This document shows positions 4,234 through 10,202 of a DNA stretch of 64,000 bases, piece by piece. The position numbers and the translations under genes are program-made. Position 1 is the stretch's first letter. Each line of letters opens with the position of its first letter. The notes under the pieces are model-generated. The model worked only from the letters and a program-made list of their open reading frames with translations, was not told where the DNA came from and searched no databases. The DNA is from Kofleriaceae bacterium (lineage in GTDB: Bacteria > Myxococcota_A > Polyangia > Haliangiales > Haliangiaceae): positions 1-64,000 of the forward strand of contig JBGARE010000037.1 in NCBI GenBank assembly GCA_044230415.1, read 5' to 3'.

Positions 4234-7194
4234 TCAGGGAGGCGCGAGGACGATCGTCACACTAGTGCCACGCGCGAGACCGAGCGCGAGCTTCGTGCCG
4301 GGTGGGGCGCGCATGAGCCCCCACGAGTTGGAGTTGTTCGCGCCCGCCACGTCGACGCCGTCGATCGTGGTGACGATGTCACCGACCTTGATGTCGACCT
4401 TTCCGGCGGGGCCGTTCGGATCGATCCAGCTGACCTTGAGCTCGCGCTCGTCGGGGAGCGTCTCCTCGGGTTGATCGGCGAAGTGGATGCCGAGCTCGCC
4501 CACGGCGTCACCGCGCTTCACGCGCTTCTTCATGATCGGAACGTCGCCGAGGTCGCCGTCGGGCGAAGGCGTACGCACCACGTCGAGCATGCTGTAGTCG
4601 CTGTCGTTCCAGTCCTTGGGGAAGCCGCGTACGTGGATGCGGCCGCGGGGGGCGCGCTCGATGACGAAGGCGCCGCTGTCGTCGGTGATGTTCGGCTCGT
4701 CGTCGTTGCCCCAGCTGTAGCCGCCGCTGCCGATGATCGGCGTCGCCATCATGCGAACGCCGGCCACCGGTTTGGTGGTGCCGTACTCGACGAGCCGGCC
4801 CTTGAGGGTGACCGAACCTTCGAGCTCGATCGTGACGCCGGACTTCTCTTCGCCTTCGGCGAGCGTGATCTGCATCGTCTTCGTCGAGCCGGGGACCTTC
4901 GCGGTGAGATCGAACTCGCCCTTGGGCAGGTCTTCGATCGCGAAGCGGCCGTCCGTCATGTAGAAGCCCTCGTCGCGCCAGAAGCCCGTCTTGCGATCCT
5001 GGACGGTGAGCTCGAGCTCGGCGAGCGAGGCCTTGTCGCCGGCGGCGAGCTTCGCGACGCCACGGATCGATCCCGTTGCTTTGATCTGGAGCTTCGCGGT
5101 CCCGTCGACCGGCACGTGCTCGGTGACGGCTTCACCACCGCCGCGGCGATACGCGCGCACGGTGTAGTTTCCGGGTGCGAGCTTCTCGACGACGAACGTG
5201 CCGTCGACGCCGGTGAGCACGGGCTTCTCGTCCCACTGCCAGCGCGACTCGCTGACGACCGACTTCGCTGCGCCTGCCGCGTCCGACTCGCGGACCGCCG
5301 AGATGAACGCGTCGGTCACGGGTTGGTTCGCGGTGTCGACGACCGTGCCTTTGATCTTTCCGGACAGCGCTTCGACCACGAGCCGCACCGTCGCGGTCTG
5401 GTTCGGTTTGACCACGACCTTCTCGCCCTTCTTCGCATCGTCGGTGGTGCCCGGCTTCTTCAGCGCGTCGCTCCAGCCGCGCTGCGCGTTCACGCGGTAC
5501 TCGCCGGGGCGCAGGCCCTCGAGCGTGAACGCGCCGTTGTCATCGACTTCGCGATTCGCCCACCCGCGACCGCCTCCGCCGACGAGGTATGCGCTCGCGT
5601 TGATCTTGGTGACCGGCGCACCGTTGGCGTCGACGACGACGCCCTTGATCGAGCCGACATCGTCGAGGATCAGATCCTTTTCGATCGTCGCGCCGGCGGT
5701 GACCTCGACCTTGTAGCCGTCTTTGGGGCCCGCGCCCTTGTCGCTCGAGACCTCGAGCTTGTACGTGCCGGGCTTGAGCCCTTCGAGCGCGTAGCTGCCA
5801 TCGCGTCCGGACTCGTCGCCGCCCCAGCCCGTGCGAGCGCGCGCGGCGCCGCCGGTGGTGCGCGCCCAGATGTTCGCGTCTTCGATCGGCTTGCCGGATC
5901 GCGCGAGCACCTTGCCGCGGATCGTCGCGCCGGCATCGACCTCCCAGACGAGGTCGGTGATGTCCTTCGTGGTGACGACGATGCGATCGTACTTGTCGCG
6001 TGCTTGATAGCCCTCGCAGTTGATCGATGGCTCGTAGTCGCCGGGCAGGACGCCTTCGGCCCACAGCGTCCCGTCGGGATTGCGGCGGAATCGGATGTAG
6101 CGCTCGGCCTTCGTGTCGTTCATGCCGACCTCGGGCTCGAGGCATGGCTGCTTCGTCGTCGAGATCATCACCTTGCCGGTGATGCGCACCGCGGGAAACA
6201 GCTTCACGACGACGTCGTCGACGTTCTGGCCCAGGCCGACGAGCGACGAGCCGTCGGTGCGTCCGTACGAGTGATCCGTTCGCGCGTAGATCACGTAGCG
6301 GCTCGGCGCGAGCTTGCCGAGGCGGAACTTGCCCTGCGCGTCGCTGAACGTGGAGTCGGAGCCGTTCCAATCGCCGAGCTGGACGCGCGCGCCTTCGACG
6401 GGCTGGCCGCTCGCCGCGTCGATGACGGTGCCGGCGATCGTCGACTCGGGCGTGAGGATCAGCTCGATGTCCTTCGCGGGTGGATCGATCCACTCCTCGC
6501 TGTCATCGTATCCATCGGCGGTCGCGTGGATCGTCGTGTAGTCGGGCGAGACCCACATCGAGAACCGGCCCTTGTCGTCGCTCTCCGTCGAGCCGAGCAC
6601 GCGATCACCGTTCTCCCCGGACCACACCCGCGCGTGCGCGACGACGCCGCCGGTGAGATCGAGGACCGTGCCGGTGATCTCGACACCGCCGCTGCGCAGC
6701 GCGAGATCGATGCCGGTCTTCGCTTCGTTCGCCGCGAGGTGCACCGCATCGCGCTTGCGATCCCCATTCGGGTGATAGACCGCGGGGCGATAGGTCTTCG
6801 CGTTCGCACCGACGCGATAGGCGGCGGGGAGTAGGTTCGCGATCGTGTAGTGCCCTTGCGCGTCCGTGGTGACGCAGGTCGGCTGGCGCAGCAGGTCGGT
6901 CGCGAGGAAGTTCGACGTGCCGTAGGCGCAGACCTGCGCACCGGCGATCGTCGCCTTCGTCTCGTCGTCGACGGTGATCGTGCCGGAGAGCGAGCCGCGG
7001 CCCAGCGTCTTCGGATCGGGTCGCGGGGTGGCGCTCACGACGCGCGCAGAACCGGAGGCGCTCGAGCCGCGCTCGGTCGCCTTCGCCACGGGCGAGGAGG
7101 GCGTGGCGTCCTCGGAGCCCGCGCGCGAGCGCCAGACGACGAGCGCGATCACCGCGAGGACGAGCGCGGCGATCCATGGAAGGCGTTTCTTCAT
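4234..7194 (-). CDS. Large exported protein: N-terminal signal/anchor, about 10 carboxypeptidase-regulatory-like (transthyretin-like) beta-sandwich repeats, C-terminal PDZ domain
   Basis: True start is at MKKRLPWIAALVLAVIALVVW (ATG 7192-7194, overlapping the upstream stop as ATGA); the ORF-track N-terminal extension is spurious. Repeats of the form G(T/S)(I/V)xDxxGxPxxGAxV. C-terminus ...VKVGDIVTTIDGVDVAGANNSNSWGLMRAPPGTKLALGLARG is PDZ-like. Confidence 0.65.
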   Translation of the reverse strand: MKKRLPWIAALVLAVIALVVWRSRAGSEDATPSSPVAKATERGSSASGSARVVSATPRPDPKTLGRGSLSGTITVDDETKATIAGAQVCAYGTSNFLATDLLRQPTCVTTDAQGHYTIANLLPAAYRVGANAKTYRPAVYHPNGDRKRDAVHLAANEAKTGIDLALRSGGVEITGTVLDLTGGVVAHARVWSGENGDRVLGSTESDDKGRFSMWVSPDYTTIHATADGYDDSEEWIDPPAKDIELILTPESTIAGTVIDAASGQPVEGARVQLGDWNGSDSTFSDAQGKFRLGKLAPSRYVIYARTDHSYGRTDGSSLVGLGQNVDDVVVKLFPAVRITGKVMISTTKQPCLEPEVGMNDTKAERYIRFRRNPDGTLWAEGVLPGDYEPSINCEGYQARDKYDRIVVTTKDITDLVWEVDAGATIRGKVLARSGKPIEDANIWARTTGGAARARTGWGGDESGRDGSYALEGLKPGTYKLEVSSDKGAGPKDGYKVEVTAGATIEKDLILDDVGSIKGVVVDANGAPVTKINASAYLVGGGGRGWANREVDDNGAFTLEGLRPGEYRVNAQRGWSDALKKPGTTDDAKKGEKVVVKPNQTATVRLVVEALSGKIKGTVVDTANQPVTDAFISAVRESDAAGAAKSVVSESRWQWDEKPVLTGVDGTFVVEKLAPGNYTVRAYRRGGGEAVTEHVPVDGTAKLQIKATGSIRGVAKLAAGDKASLAELELTVQDRKTGFWRDEGFYMTDGRFAIEDLPKGEFDLTAKVPGSTKTMQITLAEGEEKSGVTIELEGSVTLKGRLVEYGTTKPVAGVRMMATPIIGSGGYSWGNDDEPNITDDSGAFVIERAPRGRIHVRGFPKDWNDSDYSMLDVVRTPSPDGDLGDVPIMKKRVKRGDAVGELGIHFADQPEETLPDERELKVSWIDPNGPAGKVDIKVGDIVTTIDGVDVAGANNSNSWGLMRAPPGTKLALGLARGTSVTIVLAPP

Positions 7195-10100: not shown

Positions 10101-10202
10101 GTGTTCCGCCGAGTGCGCACCGTCGGTGCCGCGGCAGCGCCACAGCAACACCGCGAGCACCACGACGGCGAGCCCGACTCCAACCCCGAGTCTCCGTTTC
10201 AT
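7191..10202 (-). CDS. Large exported protein, paralog of 4234..7194 (carboxypeptidase-regulatory-like repeats plus C-terminal PDZ)
   Basis: 1,003 aa, signal/anchor MKRRLGVGVGLAVVVLAVLLW. Same repeat architecture and a PDZ-like C-terminus (IKVGDVIVSVDGVDVRGINGMHGWTLMQAPPGTKLVLGLVRG). Translationally coupled to the downstream paralog. Confidence 0.65.
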   Translation of the reverse strand: MKRRLGVGVGLAVVVLAVLLWRCRGTDGAHSAEHKGSATTERVASTSTIGVTPSAKIDPRTQAKGSISGTVRDTSGKPIAGATVCASLYSDELPPDFWEESPCKTADANGAYEWKDLFVASYHVWASARGFRFDYHYPKGPREKTTFKLGAGEHKKNVDITLRAGGVEITGIVNDISGGPIAHARVRASMGMWGEGGVSPPAETDDKGAFSLWVPQGNVQVTARADGYAAGSQRGRAPGTFEVLLTPESSLSGIVIDARTEKPIEGADVNVERSEWEGFLDFSQKRTDEKGAFRIDGLSPGRFTAIVHGEKGYGRSEGSVLVGLGQHVTGVIVRVFPTTRVVGKVVTSDTKELCKEAGISMRDEDHDRWASGSADDSGTITVYGVLPGTYKVNTWCPKKLGRDEYPPIVVADKDITGLVWEVDDAAVVTGKVTTKSGAPVADANIDAQITGGAARAKQDWNNDRTDPDGNYEMRGLKTATYKLDVNTEAGVAERDGYKVETKAGTVVTKNIVLDDGGTLTGTVVDEQGKPVANVSINATAMTEGSFMFWGQAPNKSDASGAFTITGLRPGDYRVTASRGWFDSLRKPGTNDDSRQGEKTTIEAGKTATVKLVVESQSGTIKGVVLDADGKPVSDAFISKARESDAAGANESQVHGTRGWGWGEGEKPVLTGMDGSFALTALAPGKYTLRAYRKGGGEALLEHVAIGTTNAKLQIKLTGSIDGTVKVTGGPLPEEIEVKVEDLKTGFERGERFYRTDGHFVIHDLPAGHFHLNASAAGGQAKIEIDLANGEQKTGVTLTLEQLVTLTGRVVDFVSKAPVAGIRVYAQIAQGGSFSFRWSDDMDNTSDETGRFTVKKVPRGKLSIQGMAKEWKDSDYSWFRIVRDVTATKESSIDIGDVGVIKKRIKNGEPAGEMGLHFKEQPPDTQPEDQEIRVSFIEPDGPAAKTDIKVGDVIVSVDGVDVRGINGMHGWTLMQAPPGTKLVLGLVRGTSTPVSVTLTLAPPS

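Follow-up and report, generated by a model that had tools for sequence, protein, structure and literature searches.

NOMO, a eukaryotic protein of the endoplasmic reticulum (ER), is a rod of about 12 immunoglobulin (Ig)-like domains, approximately 27 nm long, and its length sets the ER intermembrane distance (PMC8327139). BaTIE has four domains and measures 19 nm, and the two proteins give a range of 2.3-4.7 nm per domain (PMC8327139). In GspC a short cytoplasmic N-terminus precedes one transmembrane helix, a proline-rich linker and a periplasmic domain, with a PDZ domain at the C-terminus, and the protein contacts the outer-membrane secretin (PMC3169554). The present analysis concerned a pair of genes, designated big1 and big2, in a 64,000-nucleotide stretch of DNA (the window; contig JBGARE010000037.1, positions 1 to 64,000) from a soil myxobacterium of the Kofleriaceae with a 67% GC genome. 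Their products represent a large, conserved and unnamed family, referred to here after its predicted shape as the rod family, in which well-known modules are joined in a new combination.

The first gene, big1 (7191..10202, minus strand), was defined by its open reading frame (ORF) and translation; it has an ATG start and encodes 1003 amino acids (aa). The second gene, big2 (4234..7194, minus strand), encodes a colinear paralogue of 986 aa, counted from the ATG at 7194-7192. Upstream of this ATG the mechanical ORF of big2 continues to a GTG at 7596; the identical 986-aa product, with the same downstream genes, was present in independent gene calls from other assemblies of the same organism. Direct reading of ccctcATGAagaaa revealed that the big1 stop codon and the big2 start codon overlap in an ATGA (7191..7194, minus strand). 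The two proteins were 46% identical in a full-length alignment. An earlier reading made from the sequence alone (the sequence-only reading) had described tandem paralogues of about 1,000 aa with this overlap, and that description was borne out; it gave no strand, which is the minus strand. The third-position GC content of the pair was 0.88, like that of other genes in the window, a value in keeping with genuine coding sequence at a genomic GC of 67%. Against two orthologue pairs, the ratio of nonsynonymous to synonymous substitution (dN/dS) was 0.27-0.31 for big1 and big2 alike; purifying selection acts on both copies. A promoter and terminator scan of positions 1500-12600 found sites that were no more numerous than in shuffled sequence.

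The AlphaFold2 (AF2) model of big1 was made with 40 family members and had a mean predicted local distance difference test (pLDDT) score of 82.8 and a predicted template modelling (pTM) score of 0.75. It contained a helix at residues 9-21, disorder at residues 22-57, nine beta-sandwiches and a PDZ domain at residues 903-1003. All of the corresponding coding segments lie on the minus strand. The anchor (residues 1-24, 10131..10202) reads MKRR, a 17-residue hydrophobic helix and then WRCRG. It is followed by a low-complexity, disordered stalk (residues 25-61, 10020..10130; pLDDT 23-35), which was the least conserved segment in the family alignments. The nine beta-sandwich domains (residues 62-902, 7497..10019), which were delimited from the AF2 model, are D1 (62-165), D2 (166-248), D3 (249-338), D4 (339-425), D5 (426-516), D6 (517-617), D7 (618-717), D8 (718-802) and D9 (803-902). 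Cysteine pairs are present in D1 (C85/C103) and D4 (C354/C396), and D7 (8052..8351) carries the motifs ARESDAAGA and RAYRKGGGE and a Trp-rich insertion (R657, W659, W661). The PDZ domain (residues 903-1003, 7194..7496) includes a carboxylate-binding loop, G911-E-M-G914-L-H-F. The same parts were located in big2, namely the anchor (residues 1-24, 7123-7194), the sandwiches (residues 64-890, 4525-7005) and the PDZ domain (residues 891-986, 4237-4524), all on the minus strand. In the big1 model adjacent sandwiches were linked strand-to-strand by only 1-4 residues; these short joints, together with a pTM of 0.75 for a chain of 1003 residues, suggest a fixed inter-domain geometry.

The domain assignments were consistent with the Pfam analysis. 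CarboxypepD_reg matched nine stretches of big1 (261 bits) and eight of big2 (231 bits) against a cut-off of 32.3, and the C-terminal PDZ exceeded its gathering score in big1 (39.2 bits) and in big2. Membership of CarboxypepD_reg (PF13620) was taken as a hidden Markov model (HMM) score above gathering together with a transthyretin-like seven-strand sandwich; that of the PDZ families (PF00595, PF13180, PF17820) as an HMM score above gathering, a PDZ fold and an X-hydrophobic-G-hydrophobic carboxylate-binding loop. These domain families were the only ones to which big1 and big2 could be assigned, and neither protein fell within any characterised protein family whose definition was tested. By sequence and by fold the PDZ was nearest to those of DegP, DegS, CtpB and tail-specific protease. 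The rod-family GELG[ILM] loop aligned with the loop region of DegP PDZ1, whose sequence we take to be ELGI and from which the carboxylate-binding loop was identified.

No catalytic domain was found in the Pfam and NCBIfam scans, and anchor, stalk, nine sandwiches and PDZ fill the whole chain. The NCBIfam models gave partial matches only, those of proteases on the PDZ and those of dioxygenase and SusC on single sandwiches. The protease models (DegP, DegS, DegQ, Prc, Ctp) reached no further than the PDZ, with scores of 12-30 bits where the cut-offs are 218-756. A hidden enzyme was rejected, since the protease, dioxygenase and TonB-receptor matches all fell far short of cut-off and were partial, each lying within one sandwich or within the PDZ. 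The sequence-only reading had likewise proposed an N-terminal signal or anchor, a C-terminal PDZ and no protease or other catalytic domain, and on each of these points it agreed with the results. It was also right about the type of repeat, which both Pfam and the AF2 model supported; the number of repeats, put at about ten, is nine instead.

A word-indexed search returned at least 335 homologues. When 1.84 billion cluster representatives were searched exhaustively with the family profile, over 150 clusters at 50% identity were recovered; these were colinear over the 991-position profile, and most were 930-1010 aa in length. This near-constant length and colinearity over more than 150 representatives indicate a fixed architecture, unlike that of variable-repeat adhesins. 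A pattern-seeded scan, which covered one genome per GTDB species, gave 70 loci. All of the taxonomically informative titles among them were from Polyangia-type Myxococcota (Kofleriaceae, Haliangiales, Nannocystaceae or Polyangiaceae), and the remaining titles were generic (bacterium, proteobacterium, Deltaproteobacteria). The scanned loci included those of the cultured Enhygromyxa salina and Nannocystis radixulma, and a divergent representative is present in the complete genome of Pendulispora albinea. In the source databases these proteins are called "hypothetical" or "carboxypeptidase regulatory-like domain-containing protein", and many bear an incorrect JGI name, "protocatechuate 3,4-dioxygenase beta subunit". 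The family profile also matched three giant proteins, P0265, P0276 and P0355 (4463, 6305 and 3865 aa), in 19-30 stretches; in contrast to the fixed nine domains of the rod family, these proteins consist of extended arrays of that sandwich type.

Conservation was assessed in 118 full-length representatives that were 32-50% identical to big1. Both cysteine pairs, C85/C103 and C354/C396, were at least 98% conserved, which points to an oxidising compartment. An N-terminal hydrophobic segment, defined as an N-terminal 17-residue window with a Kyte-Doolittle hydrophobicity above 1.8, was present in 112 of the 118 proteins. In the PDZ loop, G-[DE]-L-G-[FIL], the two glycines were 96-97% conserved. 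The D7 residues D634, R692, G694 and G695 were at least 97% conserved; W659 and W661 were 58-62% conserved in the wider family, and H702 was 55% conserved. D7 was the most conserved domain in a Kofleriaceae-centred alignment, where it held 19 near-invariant positions, and over the 118 representatives it was second to D3 (0.59 versus 0.60). Between big1 and big2 it was again the most similar domain (65% identity), followed by the PDZ (59%) and the other sandwiches (39-52%). Identities between domains of one protein, taken from free-end-gap alignments, were set aside as unreliable where the aligned stretches were short. All nine domains were retained in orthologues at 32-38% identity.

No small residues were seen at -1/-3 beside the big1 anchor helix on direct reading, and the only hydrophobic segment is N-terminal, the C-termini being ...TLAPPS in big1 and ...VLAPP in big2. 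The N-terminus is therefore predicted to be an uncleaved signal-anchor, with the N-terminus in and the C-terminus out. This predicted topology, together with the conserved cysteine pairs, points to a bitopic protein of the inner membrane, most of whose chain would lie in the periplasm. The short joints of the AF2 model are suggestive of an extended rod, and extrapolation from the dimensions of NOMO and BaTIE would give nine domains a length of approximately 20-40 nm. This is close to the width of the Gram-negative periplasm. The conserved carboxylate-binding loop makes the binding of C-terminal peptides by the PDZ plausible.

On these grounds we tentatively propose that the rod-family proteins are inner-membrane-anchored periplasmic struts or tethers whose distal PDZ captures the C-terminus of a partner, a function that we regard as quite possible but short of probable. 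The N-terminal 4-8 residues would stay in the cytoplasm and the single helix would anchor the protein in the inner membrane. After about 35 residues of flexible stalk, the remaining chain would extend into the periplasm, its nine sandwiches, two of them stapled by disulfides, forming a stiff rod. An HtrA/Ctp-type PDZ with an intact carboxylate-binding loop would sit at the far end of the rod, where it could capture, by its free C-terminus, a protein located at or close to the outer membrane or the cell wall. The conserved D6-D7 patch may provide a second contact, either a ligand site or a self-association surface. The outcome would be a physical link between the inner membrane and the outer envelope that holds, spaces or positions a partner. 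NOMO is the precedent for such a spacer and GspC the precedent for the topology.

The best available candidate partners of the PDZ in this lineage, on suggestive evidence, are TolB-like lipoproteins ending in ...KPL. Two such genes follow the pair on the minus strand in one operon-like series: lipoprotein 1 (3248..4210), 23 nt downstream of big2, encodes 320 aa and ends ...ATKPL, and lipoprotein 2 (2288..3235), 12 nt downstream of lipoprotein 1, encodes 315 aa and ends ...TEKPL. They are paralogues with 56% identity, each with a lipobox (...CAC/GEV; ...LCAC/GEV in lipoprotein 1), a Pro/Asp-rich linker and PD40 repeats (Pfam PD40, 43 bits in lipoprotein 1), and the lipobox was kept in orthologues as ...GC/GEV. 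The AF2 model of lipoprotein 1 (pLDDT 88, pTM 0.82) had 15 strands in five groups, that is, a five-bladed propeller, and its top fold match was the TolB propeller (Foldseek E 2e-10, template modelling (TM) score approximately 0.5). TolB itself is a soluble periplasmic protein with an N-terminal alpha/beta domain and a six-bladed PD40 propeller, encoded in the tol-pal operon; lipoprotein 1 is five-bladed, lacks the TolB N-domain, has a lipobox and lies outside a tol-pal context, and was classed as TolB-like only. The lipoprotein family as a whole has at least 385 members of about 315 aa with a five-bladed TolB-like propeller and, frequently, a KPL end. A KPL C-terminus was found in 44 of 120 lipoprotein homologues (P0121-P0240) and, with the RPL variant counted, in each of the nine encoded on the same contig as a rod gene; the KPL end was found in none of 400 background ORFs and is thus non-random. 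Divergent rod-family members also end in ...KPL or ...PPL. The tail was rejected as a marker of rod-adjacent lipoproteins, as stand-alone paralogues end in KPL or RPL too and it is thus not specific.

Several observations weigh against the proposed strut and its partners. The lipoproteins lay beside rod genes in only about six of 22 syntenic loci, were absent next to the Pendulispora rod gene, and had no match in the other non-syntenic loci, those of Nannocystis and Enhygromyxa included. Paralogues of the lipoproteins that share this tail also stand by themselves at other genomic positions, so that the link between rod proteins and lipoproteins is suggestive at most. ORF clustering of 27 non-syntenic loci brought out no conserved partner gene. 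The choice between a signal-anchor and a cleaved signal peptide was made by eye and from the hydropathy window, and a pTM of 0.75 fits a compact or curved assembly equally well. PDZ domains may instead bind internal motifs or lipids, or merely oligomerise. Of the envelope location and C-terminal docking that the sequence-only reading had suggested, the location and the docking surface fit the anchor, the cysteine pairs and the PDZ loop, whereas comparative genomics, which it had put forward as a means of finding conserved partners, yielded none in the syntenic and non-syntenic loci.

Four other explanations were weighed. The rod proteins may be substrate-capturing adaptors or regulators of an HtrA-, Ctp- or Prc-type protease or quality-control factor that is encoded separately and acts in the periplasm; their PDZ would sample the exposed C-termini of misfolded or unassembled envelope proteins for the protease, and the rod would set the reach only. 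HtrA/Ctp-type PDZs, such as those of DegS and Prc, read the C-termini of substrates or stress signals, so the kinship of the rod-family PDZ with those of DegP, DegS, CtpB and tail-specific protease speaks for such a role, and the hydrophobic C-terminal tails of the rod family and the lipoproteins could act as tags. We consider it unlikely, however: no linked protease gene was found in about 45 loci with flanking sequence, nine conserved rigid domains would be a costly way to position a sensor, and the conservation of D7 would be left unexplained. That conservation is the starting point of an equally doubtful explanation, in which the Trp/Arg/Glu-rich D6-D7 patch is the main site of a glycan- or peptidoglycan-binding scaffold, with the cell wall or a periplasmic or capsular polysaccharide as ligand and the PDZ as an accessory oligomerisation module. 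It draws on the Trp-rich insertion (R657, W659, W661), on the invariant D634 and R692, and on the presence of transthyretin-like sandwiches in polysaccharide lyases and SusC-type proteins, where these modules are carbohydrate-associated; an fn3_3 match was obtained in Pfam, and rhamnogalacturonan lyase and SusC NTE matches in the fold search. No carbohydrate-binding family was matched beyond generic fold similarity, however, and the interface between domains could just as well account for the conserved residues. In the wider family W659 and W661 are only 58-62% conserved. A scaffold of this kind would be compatible with a periplasmic strut.

Export past the outer membrane, as a surface adhesin, an S-layer-like protein or a predation-related fibre, was judged improbable. 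The top Foldseek matches were Gram-positive tandem Ig-like surface proteins (BaTIE, pilins, SdrD and Cna B-repeats), the Pfam SpaA, SdrD_B and Big_1 models scored above cut-off, and myxobacteria are surface-active predators. Against this, neither an LPXTG nor a MYXO-CTERM motif, an autotransporter barrel, or a type I or type IX secretion signal was present, the hydrophobic segment is N-terminal only, the number of domains is invariant in more than 150 diverged clusters, the global TM score did not exceed 0.15, and no secretion genes are adjacent. Still less likely is a GspC-like connector that joins an inner-membrane platform to an outer-membrane pore in an unrecognised trans-envelope machine (secretion, motility or pilus), with the PDZ selecting cargo. 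The order of parts is that of GspC (PMC3169554), and the PDZ of EpsC is reported to be required for the secretion of one specific cargo (PMC12369372), which would lend some support to cargo selection. There were no genes for type II secretion (T2SS) or another machine near any locus and no T2SSC/HR match, and a copy number of one to three with scattered genes is unlike a fixed machine subunit. The anchored strut with a PDZ tip was retained as the most economical, if tentative, explanation.

The pairing of big1 and big2 was not a constant feature. The number of rod genes at the syntenic locus varied, with two in many genomes and one in at least five (L012, L018, L020, L030, L039), and Nannocystis radixulma carried three in tandem at another locus. 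A neighbour-joining tree separated a big1-type clade from a big2-type clade, and single-copy genomes held either type, which indicates that the pair is an old Kofleriaceae duplication with later losses and not a two-subunit unit. An obligate heterodimer of big1 and big2 was accordingly rejected as unlikely and not required, given single copies of either type and three copies in Nannocystis. The ATGA overlap was also present in the near relatives L001/L002 and L003, and in several other two-copy loci the matched regions lay about 30-60 nt apart. The translationally coupled pair described in the sequence-only reading does not define the system; it proved to be a lineage-specific duplication.

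The gene upstream of big1 is panC (10269..11126, minus strand; pantoate-beta-alanine ligase, Pfam 351 bits), at a distance of 66 nt. Directly upstream of panC, on the same strand, is an ORF of 397 aa (11155-12348, minus strand) with no Pfam match, which was syntenic over the Kofleriaceae loci at 34-77% identity. In Kofleriaceae metagenome-assembled genomes (MAGs) the order was the 397-aa gene, panC, the rod gene or genes, zero to two lipoprotein genes, two convergent genes and groES-groEL. In the window the two convergent genes overlap (1069-1638 and 1554-2291, plus strand; 189 and 245 aa) and had no Pfam match; in related MAGs they reached 96-98% and 90% identity, respectively, and they were always convergent and placed between the rod or lipoprotein genes and groES. 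A functional link of the rod genes to panC or groESL was rejected, as the synteny is restricted to Kofleriaceae and the two convergent genes separate groES; panC is probably a syntenic neighbour without such a link. In the 27 non-syntenic loci the sole recurrent neighbours were Ser/Thr kinases and histidine kinases, which are ubiquitous in Myxococcota, and the Pendulispora rod gene stands alone. In a Nannocystales MAG (L057) a gene at 12782-14077 (minus strand) lies directly downstream of and convergent with a rod-family gene; its 431-aa product has no recognised domain other than a C-terminal PDZ and has a counterpart in L054.

Other features were recorded elsewhere in the window. A major vault protein homologue of 867 aa (16167-18770, minus strand), with an MVP_shoulder match in Pfam (86.9 bits) and a Vault_3 repeat, was syntenic in a related MAG (L001). 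Divergent from it is a gene for a 1899-aa protein (20479-26178, plus strand) with FecR, VIT, VWA and TPR domains; eukaryotic vault vPARP likewise combines VIT (vault protein inter-alpha-trypsin) with vWA. A potassium uptake cluster (31841-39021, minus strand; 40228-42099, minus strand; 42517-44508, plus strand) comprises kdpD, kdpB and kdpA and then two divergent Kup-type transporters. An ORF of 1591 aa (53721-58496, plus strand) had a third-position GC content of 0.90 and no Pfam match at E values up to 0.001, and a 742-aa protein (60589-62817, minus strand) matched PEGA (62 bits) and, weakly, HATPase_c_2.

The rod family was compared with known proteins by sequence and by fold. No whole-chain match was found in the PDB by either route (Foldseek global TM at most 0.15), and the literature search gave nothing relevant on CarboxypepD_reg with PDZ, on the Kofleriaceae periplasm or on carboxypeptidase regulatory-like proteins of myxobacteria. 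Pfam, NCBIfam, the PDB and the literature thus agree with the sequence-only reading that no characterised family has this architecture. Intradiol dioxygenases have a full Dioxygenase_C domain with Tyr/His iron ligands; the Pfam match covered profile positions 31-110 of 182 only, the equivalog models scored 16.6 bits against 296.4 (TIGR02422) and 20.8 against 126 (TIGR02423), and H702 was not strictly conserved. The dioxygenase name given by JGI, which would stem from the shared sandwich fold, is an apparent propagated misannotation. In HtrA/Do endopeptidases the PDZ is preceded by a trypsin-like catalytic domain that bears a His-Asp-Ser triad; TIGR02037 scored 28 bits against 416 and the DegS, DegP and DegQ models 21-25 bits against 408-756, in residues 926-999 only. 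For S41 peptidases (Prc, CtpA/B), which have an S41 catalytic domain with a Ser-Lys dyad, TIGR00225 scored 29.9 bits against 218.6 on the PDZ only and there was no Pfam Peptidase_S41 match. Bacterial alpha-2-macroglobulins are proteins of about 1500-1900 aa with an MG-domain ring, a CxEQ thioester and a bait region; here there are five cysteines only, none of them in CxEQ, and the Foldseek TM to A2ML1 was 0.07. The TIGR04134 radical-SAM-associated lipoprotein model scored 55.4 bits against 39.8, but over profile positions 42-104 within D5 only; these lipoproteins are defined by a lipobox, a length of about 150 aa and an adjacent radical SAM gene, whereas big1 has no lipobox and no radical SAM neighbour.

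BaTIE, the SpaA/BcpA pilins, SdrD and the Cna B-repeats are rods of tandem prealbumin-like or CnaB-type domains and were the top Foldseek matches (6fwv, E 4e-12). Unlike the rod family, these Gram-positive proteins have LPXTG sortase anchoring, thioester or isopeptide cross-links and a variable number of repeats; a sortase-anchored pilin or MSCRAMM was rejected, as the C-termini lack both LPXTG and a hydrophobic tail and the host is a member of the Myxococcota. GspC was the closest protein in topology, with the identical order of parts. It differs in its size of about 300 aa, in its single HR domain, which binds secretin N0, and in its place in gsp operons, whereas the periplasmic module of the rod family is nine beta-sandwiches (about 840 aa). 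Identity with GspC was rejected, as there was no T2SSC/HR match in Pfam and no T2SS gene among the neighbours checked (panC, a metallophosphoesterase, an MFS transporter, the lipoproteins and groES).

In the PDB search the closest solved relative by sequence was eukaryotic NOMO2 (E 1.4e-16, over D3-D4 only), a similarity that, like the downstream TolB-like lipoproteins, was absent from the sequence-only reading. The likeness to NOMO, an ER-lumen spacer built from the same domain type, is at the level of domains only. NOMO has a cleaved signal peptide, about 12 domains and a C-terminal transmembrane helix but lacks a PDZ, and it acts in the ER alongside NCLN and TMEM147 as a subunit of the BOS complex, whereas the rod family is predicted to be periplasmic. 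The NOMO models PF22904 and PF23193 gave no match to big1 or big2 at E values up to 1; in one Nannocystis homologue they were borderline (27.1 bits against 27, and 21 against 27). Assignment to NOMO as a BOS subunit was rejected on the N-terminal anchor, the nine domains with a PDZ and the extent of the PDB match, which covers two domains only.

Control of membrane spacing in diderms is known for few models, such as the length of Lpp in enterobacteria. Myxobacterial envelopes are complex and dynamic (gliding, predation, outer-membrane exchange), and their tethers are poorly known. The cultured carriers Enhygromyxa salina, Nannocystis radixulma and Pendulispora albinea make the idea testable. 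Even if the proteins are ordinary adaptors, a misannotation is removed from several dozen metagenomic homologues and a nameless family is defined. A stronger form of the proposal, to which we give little weight, is that the proteins are the bacterial counterpart of NOMO, fixed-length struts or rulers that hook the C-termini (for example ...KPL-COOH) of outer-membrane lipoproteins and set or sense the width of the periplasm. In that case Polyangia-type myxobacteria would have a PDZ-mediated tether between the inner and outer membranes that is distinct from Lpp, OmpA, Pal and Tol. As a length-invariant family with a predicted anchor, a nine-domain rod and a putative peptide-hooking tip, the rod proteins are a concrete tether candidate, in parallel to NOMO, the spacer of the ER.

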